Below are positions 5,359-52,110 of a DNA stretch of 64,000 nt, in pieces. Made by a program: the position numbers and the translations under genes. Origin of the DNA: Thermoanaerobaculia bacterium. Its GTDB lineage: Bacteria; Acidobacteriota; Thermoanaerobaculia; Gp7-AA8. Below the pieces are notes generated by a model. It did no database searches, was not told where the DNA came from, and worked only from the letters and a program-made list of their open reading frames with translations. Position 1 is the first letter of the stretch. Every line of letters begins with the position of its first letter. The stretch covers positions 2,165-66,164 of the forward strand of contig JBBRNB010000019.1 in NCBI GenBank assembly GCA_038230535.1, read 5' to 3'.

Positions 5359-5592
5359 ATCGGTGGATCAGAGGGTCGGTGGATCGGTAGATCGGTGGAT
5401 CAGAAGGGTCTGTGGATCGGTAGATCAGTAGATCGGTGGATCGGTGGATCAGAACCAGGTTGGCTCTGGTCAGAGGCAGTTGGTTCCGATCCACTGACCT
5501 ACTGATCTACTGATCCACTGACTCACATCCACCGACCGGCCGATCTACTGATCCACTGATCTACTGCTCCACCCGACTGATTTACAATCCCC
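5356..5592. repeat. GATC-rich inverted-array intergenic element. Left arm has repeated GATCGGTGGATCAG units; right arm has CTGATCCACTGATCTACTG units.
   Basis: The arms are reverse complements built from ~9-10-nt TGGATCAGT-like units and sit strictly intergenic. Same family as 15836, 21421, 23797, 26058 and 52003. Confidence 0.8.
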
Positions 5593-14853: not shown

Positions 14854-15834
14854 ATGAATCCAGTCCAACCCATCACAGTCGCGCAATACGGCATCGGCCC
14901 GATCGGTGCGGAGATCGCCCGCCTTCTGCTCACCAAACCATGGCTTCGCGTCGTCGCTGCGGTAGACGTCGATCCCAGCAAGATCGGCAAGGACCTCGGC
15001 GAGGTCATCGGTCTCGACCGCGAGGTTGGCGTCAGAGTCACTGCCGAGCTAACCGGTAATCCTGACGTCGTCTGCCACTCCACCGGTTCCCGGCTGCGCG
15101 ATGTCTCCGGCCAGCTCAAGGATCTGCTGACGCGCGGCTGTCACGTAGTCTCCACGTGCGAAGAGCTCTCCTTCCCTCTCGATCAGCAGATCCGCGAAGA
15201 GCTGCAGCAGATGGCGCGCGCAAAGAACGTGACGCTCCTCGGCACCGGCGTCAATCCGGGTTTCGTCATGGACAAGCTGCCGCTGACCATCACCTCAGTC
15301 TGCCAGCGCATCGACTCCGTGGAGATCATCCGTATCCAGAACGCCTCCACCCGGCGCGAGCCTCTGCAGCGCAAAGTTGGCGCCGGCATGACGCCGGACG
15401 AGTTCCGCGCCGCCGTCGCTGCCGGCAAGATCAAACACATGGGCCTCCGCGAGTCTCTGATGATGGTCGGCAAGGGCCTCGGCGCGGAGTTCGAGGAGGT
15501 CAGCGGCGAGGACATCCAACCAATCATCGCCGAGCGTGAAGTGGTCACGCAGTACCTCACCTGCGCTCCCGGCCAGGTCGCCGGTGTCCATCAGACCATC
15601 CGGGGCCGCGGCAAGATCAACGTCAGCCTGGAGCTGCGTATGTACGTCGGCGCCGAGGATGTGGCCGCCGATCGCGTGCTCGTGCATGGAGTGCCGGACG
15701 TCGAGATGGTCATCAAAGGCGGCGTCCACGGCGACCGCGCCACCGCGGCAATGGTGGTGAACGCGATCCCGCGCGTCGTCAGCGCCAAGCCGGGCGTGCT
15801 GACGATGGACGACATTCCGATCTCGTTCCGGTGA
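14854..15834 (+). CDS. NAD(P)-dependent amine dehydrogenase / DapB-like oxidoreductase family protein
   Basis: N-terminal Rossmann (AQYGIGPIGAEIARLL) and a C-terminal DapB-like domain. It resembles the 2,4-diaminopentanoate dehydrogenase / dihydrodipicolinate-reductase-like family. Confidence 0.5.
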   Translation: MNPVQPITVAQYGIGPIGAEIARLLLTKPWLRVVAAVDVDPSKIGKDLGEVIGLDREVGVRVTAELTGNPDVVCHSTGSRLRDVSGQLKDLLTRGCHVVSTCEELSFPLDQQIREELQQMARAKNVTLLGTGVNPGFVMDKLPLTITSVCQRIDSVEIIRIQNASTRREPLQRKVGAGMTPDEFRAAVAAGKIKHMGLRESLMMVGKGLGAEFEEVSGEDIQPIIAEREVVTQYLTCAPGQVAGVHQTIRGRGKINVSLELRMYVGAEDVAADRVLVHGVPDVEMVIKGGVHGDRATAAMVVNAIPRVVSAKPGVLTMDDIPISFR

Positions 15835-15835
15835 T

Positions 15836-15992
15836 GGAGTAGTGGAGTAGTGGATCAGTGATCGGTGGATCAGGCACAATTGCGCCCCACGCCTGAACCA
15901 AAGCCGCGTTCCGCATACCTGTCATCCAGGATGACAGGAAGGGCTTGGCCCTTGTTCCTGATCCACTGATCCACCTGTCACTGATCCACTGA
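15836..15992. repeat. GATC-rich inverted-array intergenic element (TGGAGTAGTGGAGTAGTGGATCAGTGATCGGTGGATCAGG ... CCTGATCCACTGATCCACCTGTCACTGATCCACTGACC). The loop contains the palindrome CCTGTCATCCaGGATGACAGG.
   Basis: Direct reading at a convergent gene junction. Confidence 0.8.
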
Positions 15993-16268
15993 CCCACGGA
16001 CACGCCGAATGTATGCGCAGACAGCCAGAGCGCTCAACCCCGTTACCAGCCAAAGTGCAATCCACCCCACCGGCGCCGATCGCATCCAGTTCCACAAAGC
16101 CAGCGTGATCGCCCAGAGACCGTAGACGAAGAGAAACATCCGGCGGTGACCGCGGTCGTCTTCGACACCGGCGGCGATGCTTCCGCCGAGGATCATCGTG
16201 GGGATGAGGCCGAAGACGATGTTCAGGATGTGAATCACGAAAGGGTCACGTCCGATACCGCACGTCAA
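15978..16268 (-). CDS. Small hydrophobic membrane protein, last gene of the rSAM/GT operon
   Basis: ~96 aa, 3 predicted TM helices. It overlaps the stop of the upstream rSAM gene. The start is uncertain. Confidence 0.35.
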   Translation of the reverse strand: MTCGIGRDPFVIHILNIVFGLIPTMILGGSIAAGVEDDRGHRRMFLFVYGLWAITLALWNWMRSAPVGWIALWLVTGLSALAVCAYIRRVRGSVDQ

Positions 16269-17175
16269 TCACTTTGCGCACCACGTCCTTTGCCACCCCC
16301 GGGAGGTTCTGGACGCGCGTCAGTACGTCGTTGAAAGTGTGCGACTCACCGCCGTGCTTGAAGCACTCCGCGCAGCGGGGGAGGTTCGTGAAGTCGCGCC
16401 GTTCGAAAGCGGCCTGCATCGTGGCGAGGCGCGGGGAGTCGAGGATCTCGTGCAGCGACTGCGTTTTCAGATCGCCGAGGACCTGATCGGCGTGCGCGTC
16501 GTAGCAGCAGTGCGTCACGCGGCCGTCGGCGAAGATCACCACCCAGGTGAAGAAGGCTCCCTGCACACAGCCGTAGAACTTTCCGTGCAGGTCGGTATCC
16601 TCGTTGACGTCGAGCGCTTCGCAGGTCTTCTCGATGACGCGGGCGTTGCGGTATTGGCGAAGGTTGAACAGCGTGCGGAAATCGTCGACGGTCTCCTCGA
16701 GCGTGAGCCGTGAGCGCATCTTCTGGATCTCGATCCGGATGGGATGGCCTTTGGCCTGTTCGAGAAAGGCGCGCGTCAGTACGACCAGCTTGTCGAAGTC
16801 GCCGCCGGTTCGAAGCTGCGGGTAGACCTCCGGGTTCACCGAATCGACGCAGATGCGGATCCGTTTCAGCGGCGATGCCAGCAGCTTCGCGCCGATCTCC
16901 TCCGTCAAGACCAATCCGTTCGTGGAGAGGCTTGCCTCGGGAAAGAGACGGATGGCGTCGTCGATGCGGGCATAGAGCAGCGGCTCCCCCATCTCGTGCA
17001 GCCACTTCAGCTTCAGCCCCGCGCCGTGGATCTCGCGCTCCGCCTTCTCCACCATCGGCCAGACCATGTCCTCGTACGGACGGCGCAGCACCGGCAGCGG
17101 GCACATGCCGCAGCGAAGGTTGCACTTCGACGTCAGTTCGAGGCCGACTTTGATGCGGCGGGGGTTGAGTTTCAT
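16246..17175 (-). CDS. Radical SAM protein with SPASM/twitch-type C-terminal Cys cluster
   Basis: CNLRCGMC (CxxxCxxC) radical-SAM motif. C-terminal region contains CCYDAH...CAEC cysteines. The start at MKLNPRR (17175) overlaps the upstream GT1 stop. Confidence 0.7.
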   Translation of the reverse strand: MKLNPRRIKVGLELTSKCNLRCGMCPLPVLRRPYEDMVWPMVEKAEREIHGAGLKLKWLHEMGEPLLYARIDDAIRLFPEASLSTNGLVLTEEIGAKLLASPLKRIRICVDSVNPEVYPQLRTGGDFDKLVVLTRAFLEQAKGHPIRIEIQKMRSRLTLEETVDDFRTLFNLRQYRNARVIEKTCEALDVNEDTDLHGKFYGCVQGAFFTWVVIFADGRVTHCCYDAHADQVLGDLKTQSLHEILDSPRLATMQAAFERRDFTNLPRCAECFKHGGESHTFNDVLTRVQNLPGVAKDVVRKVIDVRYRT

Positions 17176-18263
17176 CTCCCGTCCACTAAGGCCGCGAACA
17201 CCGCAGCGTATTCCGTCCACGAGTACTTGCGCGCCGAGCCGGCGGCGGCGTGCTCCATCGATGCGCAGTCGCGTGTCGTGAAAAACTCATCGACCGCGCG
17301 CGCGAGCGCCGCTGGATCTTCGGGCGGGACGAGGATGCCGTTGCTGCCGTCGATGATCTCCGGAAGGCCGCCGACAGTCGTGGCGATGACGGGCCGCGCG
17401 AAGTGGAACGCGGTGAGTGCGACACCGCTCTGCGCCTCGATGCGGTACGGCGCGAGGACGACATCCGCGGCGGCAAAGTAGGTGGCGATCTCCGCGTCGG
17501 GGATGAAGCGAAACTCGAAGCGGACGTTGGTGAGCCCTGCCGCGAGCGCGCGATATTCATGCTCCCGTTCCCACCACGCCTCCCCTGCCACGACGAGCAT
17601 CACATCGCTCGTCAACTCGCGCCAGGCACGAAGCGCGATGTCGAGTCCTTTGAACGGACGGACGTGACCAAAGAAGAGCGCGACATTGGCTGCTCTGTCG
17701 ATGTTCAACGTGATGCGCGCATCGTTGCGCGATGGGATCGCACCACCAAGCTCGTGTACCGGGAGGAAGGTGCGAACGACTCTCCGTCCTCGCGAGCGTT
17801 TCCACGCTTCATCCCCTTCCGTGCGCGCATGCGTCACGAGAACATCGCCACGGCGTAGCACGCGATCCGTCAGCCACCGTTTCCACGCCGCCGGCTCTTT
17901 GTCACCGATGTTGTGGCATTGCAGGATGACGCGTGTACGCCGCCGCAGCAGCGCAATGATCGTCAGGTAAGCGGGAGCGAAGATCCACACCCACCAGACC
18001 AGGATCACAGCATCGTAGCGGCGCAACCGCCATCCGGCGCGCAGCCACGTCAAGGGGTTCACGACGTCGATGATGAAAGCAGCGCCGGCGCGCGGGAGCG
18101 TCGGATCGATATCGTCGCCGCCGGGGTAGAAACGCTTCGGAAACTGCCGCGAGAAGGAGATGACGTCGGCGTGAAGCTCCTCCGCCAGCCTGGTCGTGCA
18201 ATACGCGATGCCGGCGCGAAAGGGGAAAACAGGGCCGACGATGGCGAGCTTCACGCGCGGCAT
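17172..18263 (-). CDS. Glycosyltransferase family 1 (GT4-like, GT-B fold)
   Basis: The C-terminal domain has the EAQSGVALTAFHFARPVIATTVGGLPEII motif typical of GT1/GT4. Confidence 0.75.
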   Translation of the reverse strand: MPRVKLAIVGPVFPFRAGIAYCTTRLAEELHADVISFSRQFPKRFYPGGDDIDPTLPRAGAAFIIDVVNPLTWLRAGWRLRRYDAVILVWWVWIFAPAYLTIIALLRRRTRVILQCHNIGDKEPAAWKRWLTDRVLRRGDVLVTHARTEGDEAWKRSRGRRVVRTFLPVHELGGAIPSRNDARITLNIDRAANVALFFGHVRPFKGLDIALRAWRELTSDVMLVVAGEAWWEREHEYRALAAGLTNVRFEFRFIPDAEIATYFAAADVVLAPYRIEAQSGVALTAFHFARPVIATTVGGLPEIIDGSNGILVPPEDPAALARAVDEFFTTRDCASMEHAAAGSARKYSWTEYAAVFAALVDGR

Positions 18264-18381
18264 GGTAACGCCGCAGGAGACCCAATCCGCAGATGGCGCA
18301 GATTACGCAGAATGTGAATAGAAACGTCTCCTATTCTGTGTTCATCTGCGTAATCTGCGGATCAAGCTTTTGACTGTCGGA
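18264..18381 (-). other. Intercistronic 118-nt region with a long imperfect hairpin (CAGATTACGCAGAaTGTGAATAG...CTATTCTGTGTTCATCTGCGTAATCTG) between rSAM-2 and GT1
   Basis: Direct reading: ~20-bp stem with a nested 6-bp stem. It sits inside a same-strand operon. Confidence 0.55.
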
Positions 18382-19464
18382 TCACGCCGCCGACAGGAAG
18401 TTCACTACCGTCGAGGCGAAATACGCCCCCCACGTGCGAACGTCGAACACCAGCGATGACGACATGAAGCACGAGTGCGTGCAATGGCACTCCTTCGCTT
18501 TGATCGAGGCCCGTTGCGCGTCAGCGGCGGGCGAGAACCAGAGCTTGCCGAAGTCGTAGCCGGTGTCGCGCACGTTGCCGACGGCGTCGCGAAGCTCGCA
18601 CATCTTCACTTCTCCCCGCGCGTCGAGCACGCCCGAGATCCGGCCGGCGTGGCACGGCTTGACCTGCGTCTCCTGCTCCAGGATCTCCAACTCCAGGCGG
18701 CGCGTATAGATCTTCACGAACTTCAGGAAGCTGTCGTAGTGCGAGTAGGTGTTCCAGTACGTCTCGAGCTTCGGGAGCAGCTCGCGGTACTTGTCCGTCG
18801 AGACCGGCTGGATGTTCTTGTCCGGTTGATCACCGCGCAGCATCTCGAAGGAGTGAAACGAGATCGTCGGAAAGTCCTGCCGGACCGCGGCAAACAACTC
18901 GTCGAGATCATCGGCGTTGTAGCTGCAGAGGCACGTATGTACGTTGATGGTCAGGTTCCCGTACTTCTCGCGCAACGGCACCAGCGCGGCGTAGGTCTTC
19001 TTCGCCCGCTCGTAGTTCCCCGGCACGCCGCGGATCCAGTCGTGCTTCTCGCCCACGTGATCGATCGACAGATTGACGACGATCTGCGTGTCCGGACAGC
19101 GCTGCAACGCCGCCTCGGTGGATCGCGCCGTCAGCTCGCTGGCGATGGCACCTGTCGGGATGGTGATCTGCTTGACGTGGTTCTGCGACGACAACATCGC
19201 GCAGACGTCCGGCAGGTCGCGGCGCAGGAACGGCTCGCCGCCGCTCATGACCACGAACAAGAGGTCGCCGAGGGAGGAGAACGTCTTCTCCAACTCCTCG
19301 AATGACAGCTCGTGCTCTTTGTTCTTTCGGAGCTGCTCCCAGTTGAAGCAGGTGCGGCAGAACGAGTTGCAGTCGTACGTCAGCCCGAGAATCATGTAGA
19401 CGGGCTTCATCCCCCGTTTGTCGACGAGGTAACGAAGGTACTGCAGCTTGTCTGTGAACTTCAT
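18382..19464 (-). CDS. Radical SAM protein with SPASM domain
   Basis: CNSFCRTC (CxxxCxxC) motif and a C-terminal Cys-rich region (CHAGRISG...CELRD...CHCTHSC). Confidence 0.7.
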   Translation of the reverse strand: MKFTDKLQYLRYLVDKRGMKPVYMILGLTYDCNSFCRTCFNWEQLRKNKEHELSFEELEKTFSSLGDLLFVVMSGGEPFLRRDLPDVCAMLSSQNHVKQITIPTGAIASELTARSTEAALQRCPDTQIVVNLSIDHVGEKHDWIRGVPGNYERAKKTYAALVPLREKYGNLTINVHTCLCSYNADDLDELFAAVRQDFPTISFHSFEMLRGDQPDKNIQPVSTDKYRELLPKLETYWNTYSHYDSFLKFVKIYTRRLELEILEQETQVKPCHAGRISGVLDARGEVKMCELRDAVGNVRDTGYDFGKLWFSPAADAQRASIKAKECHCTHSCFMSSSLVFDVRTWGAYFASTVVNFLSAA

Positions 19465-19506: not shown

Positions 19507-19932
19507 TCACACCAGCCGCGCCTTGAGCGTGATCTCCGTCGACCGCAGTGCCTTCGAGATCGGGCAACCCTCTTTCGCTGCGACGGCCTGGGCATGGAAG
19601 CCGTCTTCGTCGATCCCCGGCACCTCGGCCTCACAATCGAGATCGATACGGGTGATCTCGAACGCTTCGCCAACTTTCTCCAACCGAACCGACGCCGTCG
19701 TGTGTACGCGCACCGGCGGATGTCCCGCGCGCGTCAGCCCCGCCGCCAGAGCCATCGAGAAGCAACCGGCGTGCGCAGCACCGATCAACTCTTCCGGATT
19801 CGTGCCGCCTGCTTCTTCGAAACGCGAGGCAAACGAGTACTTGCCTTCAAACGCTCCGCTGCCAAGTTTGACCTGACCGCTCCCCTCGCGTAACGATCCC
19901 TTCCACTCCGCTTCTGCAGTTCTGACTGCCAT
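19507..19932 (-). CDS. osmC: OsmC/Ohr family peroxiredoxin-like protein
   Basis: ~141 aa with the conserved paired Cys (AGCFSMAL...EGCPISKA) of the OsmC family. Confidence 0.75.
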   Translation of the reverse strand: MAVRTAEAEWKGSLREGSGQVKLGSGAFEGKYSFASRFEEAGGTNPEELIGAAHAGCFSMALAAGLTRAGHPPVRVHTTASVRLEKVGEAFEITRIDLDCEAEVPGIDEDGFHAQAVAAKEGCPISKALRSTEITLKARLV

Positions 19933-20102: not shown

Positions 20103-20474
20103 CTATTTGCCGGCCCACTTGCTGCTATCGAAGAAGATTGACCTCTTCTGGCCGTTGGCGGTCTCGAGATCGATCCGGTCTGCGGCCTTGTCGTTGCAGC
20201 GAATCGGTGACCGCGACACCATCTTCGCGCCGGGGTAGTTTTCCTCGATCCAGGCTTTCTCTTTGGCGATCCCCTCCCGCTCGTCGCTGGTGTTGATCGC
20301 GACAGGCGCATCGCAGGAGAGGCCGTTTGACAGAATGGGAACGGAGCCCGACCTCACCGGCCGGGTTTCGGCCGGCGCCGGCGCGGGGGCAGGCGAAGGC
20401 GACGGTGCTGGCGGCGCGGGCTGCGTCGAGACACACGCGGTAGCGAGAAAGAGCATGATGGCTGGTAAGCGCAT
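20103..20474 (-). CDS. Hypothetical lipoprotein (Pro/Ala-rich linker)
   Basis: Signal peptide with lipobox MRLPAIMLFLATAC, followed by an APAPAP linker. No known domain. Confidence 0.5.
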   Translation of the reverse strand: MRLPAIMLFLATACVSTQPAPPAPSPSPAPAPAPAETRPVRSGSVPILSNGLSCDAPVAINTSDEREGIAKEKAWIEENYPGAKMVSRSPIRCNDKAADRIDLETANGQKRSIFFDSSKWAGK

Positions 20475-20484
20475 GACATAAATC

Positions 20485-21414
20485 CTAACGCAGCTTCGCC
20501 CGGACTGCTCCCCACACAATTCCGGCGAAATAGGTCGCGTGATGAGCGGCGAAGGCGAACGGGAGCACGAGCCAGTAGCGCATCGGCAGCCGGGTGGTGC
20601 GCGCGCCGAGAATCAGCGTGGCGACGAAGTACGGGACGATGGCGATCGGCGCCGCCACGATGGCGATCGCACCGACGAGGAGGAACGCCCAGATCTTGCG
20701 GTTCTTCGTGTACGGCGATGAACCGCGGGCAAGCATCTCGCCCGTTTTGACCCGGTAACGCCACCGCTGGCGAAGGTACGGGCCGGGAAATGACCGCCGG
20801 CGGTGAAACACGCGGACACCGGAGTGATAGACGACGTTCGGCAGCAGCGATGCCACGAGCGAAGTGTCTTCACCGATATAGCCGACGGTCTCGTCGAACC
20901 CGTGAAACGACTGCCTCCGGACGAAGAGATTGACGAGAGCTACGTCGCTCGGGCTGGCGACCGGAAAGATCCCCGGAGGATTCTCGTGGCAGACCAGCCC
21001 GCTGCCGATGTACGGTGTGGACAGAAGCGTTTCGGCGATGAGCTCGGCGCGGGTGGAGTCGCGAGGAGCCGGATCGGGCCCGCCCAGAGCAAGGACGCCG
21101 GGATGTGCATCCAGCCAGGAGACGGCCGTGGCAAGCCAGCCCTCATCAGCGGCCGCATCGTCGTCGATGAAGGCCAGGATCTCCCCTCGGGCCTCGGAAA
21201 CGGCTCGATTTCTTCGAGTTGCGGGATTACGATTCGGCTCGATGACGTTCCGTACGCCGGTCCCGACTTCAACTCCCAACGGCGCCGCGGAGACCAGAAT
21301 CAACTCGAAAGGAAAAGGCGCTTCCTGACGCAGCACCGACTCGATCGCGCGCTCCGCGTCGCCTCCGATCCGCTCCACGGGCATGATGACAGTGACTTTG
21401 ATTTCGGCGCGCAT
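20485..21414 (-). CDS. Glycosyltransferase family 2 with C-terminal TM helices
   Basis: VTVIMPVERIGGDAERAIESVLRQ...IDDD motifs, plus a C-terminal membrane segment. Confidence 0.7.
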   Translation of the reverse strand: MRAEIKVTVIMPVERIGGDAERAIESVLRQEAPFPFELILVSAAPLGVEVGTGVRNVIEPNRNPATRRNRAVSEARGEILAFIDDDAAADEGWLATAVSWLDAHPGVLALGGPDPAPRDSTRAELIAETLLSTPYIGSGLVCHENPPGIFPVASPSDVALVNLFVRRQSFHGFDETVGYIGEDTSLVASLLPNVVYHSGVRVFHRRRSFPGPYLRQRWRYRVKTGEMLARGSSPYTKNRKIWAFLLVGAIAIVAAPIAIVPYFVATLILGARTTRLPMRYWLVLPFAFAAHHATYFAGIVWGAVRAKLR

Positions 21415-21420
21415 GTTGCG

Positions 21421-21600
21421 TGTGGAGTAGATTAGTGGATTGGTAGCTCAGTCGATCAGGAACCCCAGCCGCGAAGTCTTGATTGGAGTCGATCACTGGA
21501 TCAGGCGATCCGTTGACCGGGAGTCCCCAGGTTCATTCCGACCGAGCTCCGTCGTCCTGATCCACTAATCTACTAACCTACTGATCCACTGATGGACTGA
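21421..21600. repeat. GATC-rich inverted-array intergenic element (divergent promoter region)
   Basis: TGGAGTAGATTAGTGGATTGGTAGCTCAGTCGATCAGG ... CCTGATCCACTAATCTACTAACCTACTGATCCACTGATGGACTG. Confidence 0.75.
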
Positions 21601-21607
21601 AAACTAC

Positions 21608-22831
21608 ATGAAGCTTATCGTTCAAATCCCAGCCTTCAACGAAGAAGCGACGATCGCGCAGACGCTTCGCGACCTCCCGAAGAAAATAGACGGCGTCACA
21701 ACGATCGAGAGCCTCGTCGTCGATGACGGCTCTTCCGACAAGACCGCCGAAGCCGCGAGGAAAGCTGGCGCGACCCACGTGGTGCTGCTCAAAACGCACC
21801 GCGGCCTCTCCTCAGCGTTCCTGGCCGGCATCAACGCCGCGCTCCGCCTCGGCGCCGACATCATCGTCAACACCGACGCGGACAATCAATACGCAGGCGC
21901 CGACATCGCCAAACTCATCGCTCCGATCGTCCACGGAACGGCGGATGTAGTCATCGGCGACCGTGAGGTCGCGAAGTCGCCGCATATGTCCGGGTTCAAA
22001 CGCCTGCTGCAGCGTCTCGGCAGCCGGACGGTCGGGCTGGCGTCAGGGATTCGCGTCAGCGACGTGACCAGCGGCTTCCGCGCCTTCTCGCGCGACGCGG
22101 CGATGCAGATCAACGTCTTCAACCCCTTCACCTATACGCTCGAAACGATCATCCAGGCTGGCAACCGCAACCTCGGCGTGCAGTCCGTGCCGGTGCGCAC
22201 GAACCCGCCGGCGCGCCCGTCCCGGCTGTATCGCGGCATCGGCACGTACTTGCGCAAGTCGGTAGCCACCATCTTTCGGATCTACACGATCTACAAGCCG
22301 CTGAAAACGTTCTTCACGATCGGCGTGCTCCTTCTGCTGGCCGGCTCAGCCCTTGGCGCCCGTTTCCTCTGGGCCTTCGCACACGGCGATCGTGGTGGCC
22401 ATGTGCAGTCGCTGATCCTGGCGTCCGTGTTCCTGATCGCCGGCTTTCAGACGCTGCTGATTGGACTGGTGGCGGACCTCATCTCCGTCAACCGGCGCCT
22501 GAGCGAAGAGGTTCTCGTCCGGCTGAAACGCCTGGAGCCGCCTGTCGTCGCCGAACGCCGTCCCATGCCGCAGCAATTACCTCGCGCAGCGCATGCCGCA
22601 CGCCCTCCGGCGCCGAAACGAGAACGCCCCGAGCCGAAAAACGCCGCAACGCAGTGGGTGTGGCTGCTCGACGAAGAGAAGCTGCAGGATCGCATCAAGC
22701 CCGAGCCCATCCAGGAGCCGGATCTCGACGATGACCTGCCTCCACCAACGCCGCCTCCAGCCGGCGAACCACGCCGCCGCCGCCGTCGCCGCGGCGGAGC
22801 ACGCCCAGGTTCGGAACCGCCTACGACGTAG
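21608..22831 (+). CDS. Glycosyltransferase family 2 (DPM-synthase-like) with TM segments and a Pro/Arg-rich C-terminal tail
   Basis: MKLIVQIPAFNEE...VVDDGSSDKT...NTDADNQY motifs. C-terminal PPPTPPPAGEPRRRRRRRG tail. Confidence 0.75.
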   Translation: MKLIVQIPAFNEEATIAQTLRDLPKKIDGVTTIESLVVDDGSSDKTAEAARKAGATHVVLLKTHRGLSSAFLAGINAALRLGADIIVNTDADNQYAGADIAKLIAPIVHGTADVVIGDREVAKSPHMSGFKRLLQRLGSRTVGLASGIRVSDVTSGFRAFSRDAAMQINVFNPFTYTLETIIQAGNRNLGVQSVPVRTNPPARPSRLYRGIGTYLRKSVATIFRIYTIYKPLKTFFTIGVLLLLAGSALGARFLWAFAHGDRGGHVQSLILASVFLIAGFQTLLIGLVADLISVNRRLSEEVLVRLKRLEPPVVAERRPMPQQLPRAAHAARPPAPKRERPEPKNAATQWVWLLDEEKLQDRIKPEPIQEPDLDDDLPPPTPPPAGEPRRRRRRRGGARPGSEPPTT

Positions 22832-22835
22832 TGTG

Positions 22836-22993
22836 CCCTTGATTTCGCGCGAAGCGCTTTGGAGCGCGGTAGCCGTAGCTACCGCTTTCTGAAATTCTCT
22901 ACGAGATGTCGGACCAGTCGCGAGGCGCCCCCTCCCTCCCAAAGCGGTGGCTGCGGCCACCGCGCACTCCAAGCGCTTCGCGCGAAATCAAGC
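22836..22993. repeat. Long-range inverted repeat with ~33-bp arms (CTTGATTTCGCGCGAAGCGCTTTGGAGCGCGG / CCGCGCACTCCAAGCGCTTCGCGCGAAATCAAG). It encloses two internal hairpins (CGGTAGCcgtaGCTACCG and GCGGTGGctgcggCCACCGC).
   Basis: Direct reading between convergent genes: GT2 end at 22831 and hydrolase stop at 22997. Confidence 0.65.
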
Positions 22994-23796: not shown

Positions 23797-23925
23797 TCGA
23801 TCGGTGATCAGTAGATCAGTGATCAGAGGAGCAGTGGATCAGGACAGAGGTTGACTCAGTGGTACTTAGAAGAGAAACACCGCCTTCTGACCCACTCATT
23901 GCGAATCCACTGATCGACTGATCCA
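23797..23925. repeat. GATC-rich inverted-array intergenic element
   Basis: GATCGGTGATCAGTAGATCAGTGATCAGAGGAGCAGTGGATCAGG ... GAATCCACTGATCGACTGATCCATC. Confidence 0.75.
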
Positions 23926-26057: not shown

Positions 26058-26224
26058 GAATCAGTGGAGCAGTGGAGCAGTGGAGCAGTCGATCTGTAAT
26101 CAGGCGGCCTGATTCTATCGACCAATCCACTGATCCACTGATCCACTGATCGACTTCTCTACAGTCGATCCGTAGTCAGGAAGCCTGATTCTGATCGACC
26201 AATCCACTGATCCACTGATCGACT
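26058..26224. repeat. GATC-rich inverted-array intergenic element, tandem double copy (CAGTGGAGCAGTGGAGCAGTGGAGCAG ... CCACTGATCCACTGATCCACTGATCGAC, then a second partial copy)
   Basis: Direct reading. The loop has the palindrome AATCAGGCGGCCTGATT. Confidence 0.75.
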
Positions 26225-52002: not shown

Positions 52003-52110
52003 CAGATCAGTGATCGGTAGATCGGCAATCAGGACAAGCCGCATATTCCTGATCCACTGATCTACTAATCCACTGATCTACTGATCACCGATCTTCTGAT
52101 CACCGATCAA
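52003..52110. repeat. GATC-rich inverted-array intergenic element (compact copy) with a short loop containing AAGCCGCATATTCCTG
   Basis: CAGATCAGTGATCGGTAGATCGG ... CCTGATCCACTGATCTACTAATCCACTGATCTACTGATCACCGATC. Confidence 0.75.

Follow-up and report, generated by a model that had tools for sequence, protein, structure and literature searches.

What is made by two radical S-adenosylmethionine (SAM) enzymes encoded on either side of a glycosyltransferase is the question raised by four genes at positions 15978-19464, minus strand, of a 64,000-nucleotide stretch of DNA from a Thermoanaerobaculia bacterium (Acidobacteriota; contig JBBRNB010000019.1), the whole of which is termed the window here. 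In transcription order, the genes encode a radical SAM enzyme (rSAM1), a glycosyltransferase (GT4), a further radical SAM enzyme (rSAM2), and a small membrane protein. A sequence-only reading of this DNA had suggested the maturation of either a glycosylated product resembling a ribosomally synthesized and post-translationally modified peptide (RiPP) or a modified lipid or glycan. The latter is favored here by the glycan context of related enzymes and by the membrane-bound partners of the cassette. With a probability of roughly 0.55, the genes belong to a Thermoanaerobaculia-specific, membrane-associated pathway in which a glycoconjugate is built and its sugars are afterwards modified by radical chemistry, through two modules that each join a glycosyltransferase to a radical SAM enzyme. 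Possible products include a glycolipid head group, a lipid-linked glycan, and an envelope polysaccharide.

The minus-strand order of radical SAM enzyme, glycosyltransferase, radical SAM enzyme, and small membrane protein held up as first read, with each of the four open reading frames (ORFs) found in its place. rSAM1 (18382-19464; 360 amino acids) is followed, after a 118-nt spacer (18264-18381) containing a single long hairpin, by the gene for an intact, 363-amino-acid GT4-type glycosyltransferase (17172-18263). rSAM2 (16246-17175) starts at the ATG at 17175, not at the GTG at 17220, and is translationally coupled to GT4 through a 4-nt overlap with the GT4 stop codon (ATGA); the resulting 309 amino acids are the length of every homolog. 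The small gene (15978-16238) follows 7 nt past the rSAM2 TGA, and its true start is most likely the GTG at 16238, yielding 86 amino acids with three hydrophobic helices. A length of 96 amino acids, as initially assigned, corresponds to an alternative start (TTG 16268) and is less likely, since an 86-amino-acid protein of 99% identity was called on a 71,023-bp contig that also encodes a 100% identical rSAM2. The same minus-strand transcription unit probably begins further upstream with GT2a (20485-21414), encoding a 309-amino-acid family 2 glycosyltransferase, beyond which a divergent 407-amino-acid family 2 glycosyltransferase, GT2b, is encoded on the plus strand (21608-22831); both match Pfam Glycos_transf_2.

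To place the cassette in its taxonomic range, one genome per GTDB species was scanned with GT4 and the neighboring genes were located by tblastn. All 69 loci recovered derive from Thermoanaerobaculia or Acidobacteriota metagenome-assembled genomes (MAGs), and each of the four proteins has its homologs in MAGs of Thermoanaerobaculia (Acidobacteriota) and in soil metagenomes. rSAM2 follows GT4 in every locus with room for it (57/57), mostly within 0-36 nt, and the small gene follows rSAM2 in 51 of 54. rSAM1 lies upstream of GT4 in 39 of 50 loci, and its presence co-varies with that of GT2a (both in 31 loci, neither in 8, a single locus discordant), while GT2b is syntenic in 36 of the 40 loci with room upstream. 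Co-variation and co-occurrence thus define two modules, an optional one of GT2a and rSAM1 and an obligate one of GT4, rSAM2, and the small protein. Across 42 loci, mismatch fractions in the small ORF were 0.27, 0.165, and 0.46 at codon positions 1, 2, and 3, a substitution pattern that identifies it as a real coding gene. The four-gene arrangement is therefore not a product of chance, given this coding-type substitution pattern and the invariable position of rSAM2 after GT4.

Sequence identity across loci ranges from 74 to 97% for rSAM2 and from 78 to 98% for rSAM1, as compared to 71 to 87% for the universal GTPase YchF, which is encoded nearby, and 51 to 87% for GT4. The relationship is maintained within individual loci (L053: rSAM2 89%, rSAM1 88%, YchF 73%; L062: rSAM2 81%, rSAM1 78%, YchF 71%). 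Both radical SAM enzymes are thus conserved as much as YchF or more, whereas the glycosyltransferases and the small protein diverge much faster. The constraint on rSAM1 and rSAM2 is unusually strong for enzymes with no assigned function and amounts to strong purifying selection. By these identities, the cassette is conserved throughout the class like a housekeeping locus, which is not typical of accessory natural-product clusters. A literature search did not find a description of the cassette and returned a general review of lipid-modifying radical SAM enzymes (PMC13459092).

Both enzymes carry the radical SAM motif CX3CX2C, as C32NSFC36RTC39 in rSAM1 and C18NLRC22GMC25 in rSAM2. Members of the SPASM subfamily bind two auxiliary [4Fe-4S] clusters through a motif of seven cysteines, CX9-15GX4C ... 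CX2CX5CX3C ... C; upon inspection of the alignments, the full motif was present in neither rSAM1 nor rSAM2. rSAM2 matches Pfam SPASM (2.1e-11, 44 bits) and Radical_SAM (1.2e-10) and has a twitch-like auxiliary domain, C203-x19-C223-C224 ... C268-x2-C271, in which the broad rSAM2 family shows no variation at C203, C223, C268, and C271 and almost none at C224. Mean column identity of rSAM2 was 91% over 20 homologs. rSAM1 matches Radical_SAM (5.5e-12) and Fer4_12, and its C-terminal auxiliary-cluster motif comprises five cysteines, C271-x17-C289 ... C326-x-C328-x3-C332; its cysteines are invariant in the homolog alignment, and Pfam SPASM was not matched in the Pfam scan. The auxiliary domains of the two enzymes look like twitch or partial SPASM domains. 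Their original designation as two SPASM enzymes is a loose one: rSAM2 has a twitch-like domain of four to five cysteines, and rSAM1 has five C-terminal cysteines without a Pfam SPASM match. Neither enzyme reached the cut-off of any curated NCBIfam radical SAM family (GeoRSP, NirJ/Ahb, MftC, PqqE, MoaA, tungsten-cofactor maturase, and others), the best scores being 55.3 bits against a cut-off of 400 for rSAM1 and 53.1 bits against 380 for rSAM2.

The wider kinship of rSAM2 points to sugar chemistry. An exhaustive search of 1.84 billion representatives returned 32 rSAM2 homologs at E ≤ 1e-30, among them one sister family of 48% identity, likewise from Thermoanaerobaculia. Beyond this sister family lies a broad set of radical SAM/SPASM proteins of 270 to 340 amino acids with approximately 30% identity to rSAM2, a BtrN-like family of 1173 representatives at E ≤ 1e-10. 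A profile of the broad family, compared with solved structures, placed BtrN first (8.8e-36, 126.7 bits) and MoaA next (1.8e-17). The alignment to BtrN extends over both the core and the twitch segment, with each of the four cluster-ligating auxiliary cysteines of the rSAM2 family opposite one of BtrN (HMMER; spacing Cx18-19C ... CxxC). A narrow rSAM2 profile also placed BtrN first (3.8e-5).

BtrN, the top solved relative of the rSAM2 family, is the twitch-domain 2-deoxy-scyllo-inosamine dehydrogenase of the butirosin pathway (PDB 4m7t/4m7s). It shares with rSAM2 the CX3CX2C motif and a four-cysteine auxiliary cluster (Cx18C ... Cx2C in BtrN; C203-x19-C223 ... C268-x2-C271 in rSAM2) and acts on a carbinol C-H of a carbohydrate-like substrate, which fits the partnership of rSAM2 with a glycosyltransferase. 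In contrast to BtrN, rSAM2 is approximately 40 to 60 residues longer, with a conserved C-terminal tail, and has CC where BtrN has CF after the second cluster ligand. rSAM2 further differs in being obligately paired with GT4 and a small membrane protein, in its restriction to Thermoanaerobaculia, and in that no aminoglycoside genes (deoxy-inosose synthase, aminotransferase) lie near it among the proteins scanned.

For rSAM1, a good AlphaFold2 (AF2) model was obtained, with a mean predicted local distance difference test score (pLDDT) of 82.5. Searching its fold with Foldseek returned generic SPASM/twitch matches at 13 to 18% sequence identity. The best TM-score was to BlsE (0.60/0.65), with DesII also among the matches, while the best E-values were to SkfB and anSME; the fold search could not separate peptide-modifying from sugar-modifying enzymes. 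An rSAM1 of 75% identity was found elsewhere with a GT4 but without rSAM2.

Pfam assigns GT4 to Glyco_trans_1_4 (2e-26) and Glycos_transf_1 (3.9e-22), with weak N-terminal matches of Glyco_transf_4 type, and thus to a CAZy GT4-type, GT-B fold enzyme. The name GT1 under which it had first been recorded was right as to a glycosyltransferase but reflects the Pfam "group 1" label, the CAZy type being GT4 by these matches. Its best NCBIfam scores were to MshA (78 bits; cut-off 462) and GlcNAc-phosphatidylglycerol synthase (65 bits; cut-off 480), and its best PDB match, to MshA (3c4q), is a weak resemblance confined to the C-terminal domain. Relatives of GT4 are 387 to 430 amino acids long, and a frameshift or truncation in the present gene was considered and rejected, since the proteins align end to end and the length gap corresponds to low-complexity inserts in the relatives. 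These inserts are lineage-specific and span 45 to 70 residues. A role in defense, raised by a score of 24.5 to Pfam GT4-conflict (cut-off 26), was likewise rejected, as GT4 has no PADLOC match; PADLOC matches to pVip were weak (24-32 bits) and reflect generic similarity of the radical SAM core.

Hydropathy places membrane segments in GT2a, GT2b, the small protein, and possibly GT4, in which residues 84 to 107 form one strongly hydrophobic segment. The segment of GT2a is C terminal, and the nearest curated family to this enzyme is MftF (60 bits; cut-off 280). GT2b matches Glycos_transf_2 over residues 6 to 166 (2.4e-21), followed by hydrophobic segments at 231-258 and 266-295. As judged from its sequence, this architecture of a GT-A domain and two C-terminal helices matches that of GtrB/DPM1/AglJ-type polyprenyl-phosphate sugar synthases, with NCBIfam scores of 122 bits for AglJ (below the equivalog cut-off of 325), 73 bits for dolichyl-phosphate hexose transferase, and 71 bits for PpgS. 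Past the two membrane helices, GT2b ends in a low-complexity, Pro/Arg-rich tail of approximately 80 residues (~330-407; ...PPPTPPPAGEPRRRRRRRGGARPGSEPPTT), which is similar to the inserts of the GT4 relatives.

The small protein has three hydrophobic segments, a conserved acidic/basic loop (vdDD..HRR), and a WNW..S motif. It belongs to a family of 709 proteins, all of 80 to 97 amino acids, unannotated and from Thermoanaerobaculia. No fusions were detected among the best 120 of these 709 relatives. The protein reached no Pfam family cut-off and matched neither the GtrA nor the SMR family.

Distant relatives of both radical SAM enzymes occur among genes for glycan assembly. A paralogous cassette in other Thermoanaerobaculia (L081, 204-3887; also L078 and L083) encodes, in genes whose ends all overlap, a class I methyltransferase, an MftF-like GT2, an rSAM1-like enzyme (31% identity, E 6e-39), and an rSAM2-like enzyme (48%). 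GT4 and the small membrane gene are absent from it, and it is flanked by PIN or HicA-type toxin genes and an ABC-2 transporter. The presence there of rSAM1-like and rSAM2-like genes together behind a GT2 indicates that the two radical SAM families also travel together outside the present cassette. An MftF-like GT2 directly precedes the rSAM1-like gene both in this cassette (L081) and in another locus (L001), where an rSAM1 relative of 46% identity overlaps the GT2 gene. The L001 cluster further encodes a DPM1-like GT2 of 49% identity to GT2b, a flippase-like protein, a Wzx-type flippase, a Wzy-type polymerase (TIGR04370, above cut-off), a UbiA prenyltransferase, and an ArnA-like formyltransferase. 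Several rSAM2 relatives of 30 to 36% identity are fused to GT41 and TPR, GT2, hexapeptide acyltransferase, or methyltransferase domains. One from Omnitrophota lies among genes for a MurJ-type flippase, Wzy_C, a methyltransferase, a fusion of a B12-dependent radical SAM enzyme to a GT2, a polysaccharide deacetylase, and GT4s, and another is encoded near GT2 and GT32 genes. A glycan or glycolipid product is favored on account of these polysaccharide clusters and glycosyltransferase fusions, together with the membrane-bound nature of the adjacent GT2s and the small protein.

For the acceptor, the donor sugars, the reaction of each radical SAM enzyme, the role of the small protein, and a functional link to GT2b, we infer the following scheme. 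GT2a and rSAM1 form the optional module, gained and lost jointly, and GT4, rSAM2, and the 86-residue three-helix protein the obligate, translationally coupled one. GT2b would probably supply a polyprenyl-phosphate sugar, and each glycosyltransferase would install one sugar. The partner radical SAM enzyme would then cleave SAM to a 5'-deoxyadenosyl radical that attacks a carbinol C-H of the installed sugar or cyclitol and removes its hydrogen. In rSAM2, the substrate radical may be oxidized via the auxiliary [4Fe-4S] cluster, as in BtrN, to give a keto-sugar. Alternatively, it may be quenched from the opposite face to give an epimer, with C224, the position of which is occupied by Phe in BtrN, a candidate hydrogen donor. 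The small membrane protein may tether the soluble rSAM2/GT4 pair to a membrane substrate or aid movement of the product.

Several observations weigh against this pathway. No cultured organism carrying the cassette was present in the collections searched. The locus contains no genes for nucleotide-sugar synthesis, Wzx/Wzy, or a GT-C transferase, so that the glycan cannot be followed to its destination. The glycan-cluster context comes from a handful of distant relatives, and the tie between GT2b and the cassette is one of synteny. As to rSAM2, the strong BtrN score stems from a profile dominated by relatives of 30% identity; the single sequence gives no BtrN match at E ≤ 0.01, and single-sequence PDB searches returned only weak matches to MoaA, QueE, or SkfB. 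Its relation to BtrN is therefore one of remote homology, not orthology. The AF2 model of rSAM2 was poor (pLDDT 54), since the homologs used were all at least 86% identical, and was left out of the fold search. The structural neighbors of the rSAM1 model are a mixture of peptide-modifying (SkfB, anSME, SuiB) and sugar-modifying (BlsE, DesII) radical SAM enzymes.

Three other readings come into consideration, the first being a soluble small-molecule glycoside. Here, an MshA/BtrM-like GT4 would glycosylate a cyclitol and a BtrN-like radical SAM enzyme would oxidize it, producing a cyclitol or aminocyclitol pseudo-disaccharide such as a low-molecular-weight thiol, a compatible solute, or a cofactor tail. 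The best curated and solved matches of GT4 are indeed to MshA, an inositol-phosphate GlcNAc transferase; the closest solved relative of rSAM2 oxidizes an aminocyclitol; the GT2 partners are nearest to MftF, which decorates the cofactor mycofactocin; and high conservation throughout the class would suit a core metabolite. However, the matches fall far under their cut-offs (MshA 78 versus 462; MftF 60 versus 280), and no inositol-phosphate or deoxy-inosose synthase, aminotransferase, deacetylase, or ligase was found among the neighbors scanned. Membrane localization of GT2a, GT2b, and the obligate small partner, and the polysaccharide clusters that harbor distant relatives, also argue against a soluble product, which we regard as unlikely. 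Action of the radical SAM enzymes on the lipid part, forming C-C or ether bonds in acidobacterial membrane-spanning or branched lipids to which the glycosyltransferases then add a head group, is a still less probable arrangement. Unusual membrane-spanning lipids are a known trait of Acidobacteriota, and SPASM-type domains occur in several lipid-modifying radical SAM enzymes (PMC13459092); the system is membrane-associated, and the lipid synthase Tes is among the weaker PDB and NCBIfam matches of both enzymes. Those Tes matches, however, are restricted to the generic N-terminal core (60.7 bits for rSAM2, against 126.7 for BtrN), and rSAM2 and rSAM1, at 309 and 360 amino acids, are much shorter than Tes (526 in the solved chain). 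Relatives are moreover fused to sugar-modifying domains and found in polysaccharide rather than lipid clusters.

A glycosylated RiPP-like product, by which one or both radical SAM enzymes would cross-link or epimerize a peptide glycosylated by GT4 and the small protein would serve in immunity or export or be the precursor, is very improbable. Two auxiliary-cluster radical SAM enzymes beside a glycosyltransferase do recall some RiPP clusters, and the peptide-modifying enzymes SkfB and anSME give the best Foldseek E-values for rSAM1, alongside weak NCBIfam matches to peptide maturases. However, a hunt for conserved short ORFs found none, in agreement with the initial observation that no short precursor is visible. 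ORFs in the rSAM1-GT4 spacer of relatives seemed conserved but proved to be HicB/HicA-like and ParD/ParE-like toxin-antitoxin genes, family names assigned by reading the sequences with no database search. Genes inserted between rSAM2 and the small gene in relatives encode S1/P1-nuclease-like or unrelated secreted proteins. No Pfam or NCBIfam match to a RiPP recognition element (RRE) or PqqD domain was detected in any of the ten proteins scanned; an N-terminal RRE is absent from rSAM1 and rSAM2, in which 31 and 17 residues, respectively, lie ahead of CX3CX2C. Nor was a leader peptidase or other protease, or a dedicated ABC-type exporter, found among the window neighbors or the syntenic loci, and GT4 matches the radical SAM-associated family TIGR04157 at 27 bits against a cut-off of 400. 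The small ORF, which had been entertained as an unusual precursor, is not plausible as such, since its product is a conserved membrane protein of three helices, the charged loops of which are conserved and which has no conserved Cys/Ser/Thr-rich core. Conservation throughout the class at housekeeping-like identity is also out of keeping with a RiPP cluster. Assignment of both radical SAM enzymes to housekeeping families in conserved non-RiPP neighborhoods had been named beforehand as evidence against a RiPP; a conserved non-RiPP neighborhood was found, but neither enzyme falls into a characterized family (55 and 53 bits versus 380-400).

The proposed glycoconjugate pathway shares elements with several known systems. 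Closest after BtrN are BlsE (7vob), DesII (8hzv), and SpeY (7wzv), small sugar-tailoring radical SAM enzymes with one or no auxiliary cluster; they abstract hydrogen from a sugar carbon and oxidize, epimerize, decarboxylate, or deaminate the sugar. HygY and AviX12 are sugar-tailoring radical SAM epimerases of natural-product pathways. These enzymes derive from antibiotic clusters of actinomycetes, whereas the present cassette is a core locus maintained across an uncultured class of Acidobacteriota and has membrane-bound partners. Among lipid head-group enzymes, HpnJ of hopanoid synthesis is a B12-binding class B radical SAM enzyme, whereas rSAM1 and rSAM2 contain no B12 domain and gave no NCBIfam match at the level of HpnH/HpnJ. 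Calditol synthase (Cds) of Sulfolobus is likewise a lipid head-group radical SAM enzyme (PMC13459092). The likeness of both to the scheme proposed here is one of concept, in that a membrane lipid first receives a hexose from a glycosyltransferase, after which radical SAM chemistry rearranges the sugar to a robust head group.

Resemblance to the mycofactocin system (MftC, MftF, MftM) is seen in the GT2 that precedes rSAM1-like genes, which best matches MftF in three versions of the cassette (60, 68, and 88 bits), and in the methyltransferase of the paralogous cassette, which weakly matches MftM. However, these GT2 scores compare with a cut-off of 280, MftC scores are 49 and 21 bits against 265, and MftA/B/D/E homologs and an RRE are absent. 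With GtrA/GtrB/GtrV- and Arn-type systems, the cassette shares the architecture of GT2b and a small multi-helix membrane protein comparable to GtrA or ArnE/F, and the distant locus L001 combines Arn-like genes with a GT2 and rSAM1-like pair. The small protein differs in having three helices rather than four and no GtrA/SMR match, and the locus lacks a GT-C transferase. We know of no radical SAM enzyme that is part of a Gtr or Arn system.

An OsmC-family peroxiredoxin gene (19507-19932, minus strand; TIGR03562, 183 bits versus a cut-off of 85.8) lies 42 nt upstream of rSAM1 on the same strand, occupies this position in few related loci, and is a variable passenger rather than a core part. The 138-amino-acid ORF between it and GT2a (20103-20519, minus strand) is known from its translation and has no Pfam or NCBIfam match. 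It probably encodes a secreted protein or lipoprotein, since it has an N-terminal hydrophobic, signal-like segment and a Pro/Ala-rich linker. It too is a variable passenger, limited to the closest relatives and present in a subset of loci at 45 to 54% identity. A 2,4-diaminopentanoate-dehydrogenase-like gene (14854-15834, plus strand; Pfam DAP_DH_C; NF040740 at 244 bits, below the cut-off of 400) is convergent to the operon and syntenic in most related loci at 75 to 93% identity; no functional link to the cassette is evident.

The spacer between rSAM1 and GT4 has a lower GC content (0.50) and a predicted folding energy of -47.1 kcal/mol (z = -5.5), with a perfect 15-bp inverted repeat at 18297-18311 and 18345-18359. 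The hairpin is not a canonical terminator, as it has no U-run, and its sequence is absent from the other 87 related loci. In relatives, this spacer ranges from 0 to 720 nt and holds toxin-antitoxin genes, making it an insertion hot spot for such genes in an otherwise tight operon. Five loci of close relatives (L012, L014, L009, L017, L020) have spacers of 290 to 720 nt with small genes of toxin-antitoxin type. An antitoxin-like ORF of 74 to 78 amino acids is common to L012, L014, L017, and L020, followed in L020 by a ParE/RelE-like ORF, and an opposite-strand HicB-like ORF of 71 amino acids with a HicA-like partner occurs in L009, L012, and L014.

Scans of the locus for promoters, terminators, and Rfam families returned nothing above background except palindromes. 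The operon ends in a dispersed repeat of GTGGATCAG units found at several intergenic sites of the window; units of 8 nt, GTGGATCA(G), occur at 5363-5564, 15842-15997, 21579-21589, 23811-23918, 26064-26223, and 52055-52081, with 21 matches to GTGGATCAGTG at ≤1 mismatch as compared to 1.1 expected. The copy at 15842-15997, lying where the diaminopentanoate-dehydrogenase-like gene and the small membrane gene converge, forms inverted arms of 32 nt; the last codons of the small gene (GSVDQ) fall within this copy. This repeat looks like a repetitive extragenic palindromic (REP)- or miniature inverted-repeat transposable element (MITE)-like element or a bidirectional terminator. A long palindrome (22853-22977) separates GT2b from a convergent alpha/beta-hydrolase gene; weak, subthreshold Rfam matches to microRNA precursors on both strands show just a long hairpin.

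In this locus, radical tailoring of glycans would be carried out by paired glycosyltransferase and radical SAM modules together with a novel microprotein, confined to an uncultured class. A bolder proposal, which we consider quite unlikely, is that the cassette makes a new head group or envelope glycan, derived from sugar by radical rearrangement and distinctive of Thermoanaerobaculia. For example, a membrane lipid could carry a keto-, epi-, or carbocyclic (cyclitol-like) sugar, formed in the manner of archaeal calditol or hopanoid cyclitol ethers by the two enzyme pairs, with the three-helix microprotein as a new subunit. Were this true, the BtrN-like family, with its 1173 representatives, would constitute widespread, unrecognized glycan-tailoring radical enzymes of bacterial polysaccharide clusters. 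For genome mining, the locus is a caution that two radical SAM enzymes and a glycosyltransferase are not to be taken for a RiPP cluster unless a precursor gene or RRE domain is present.

To our knowledge, sugar-tailoring radical SAM enzymes come almost solely from antibiotic pathways of cultured actinomycetes. The present locus contributes two uncharacterized radical SAM families, each tied to a glycosyltransferase, in a setting of housekeeping-grade conservation across a whole class of soil Acidobacteriota that is abundant and uncultured. Should the cassette produce an envelope glycolipid or glycan, this would represent a new chemical trait of the lineage, possibly a biomarker, and would provide a first function for the broad BtrN-like family that recurs in polysaccharide clusters and in fusions to glycosyltransferases.

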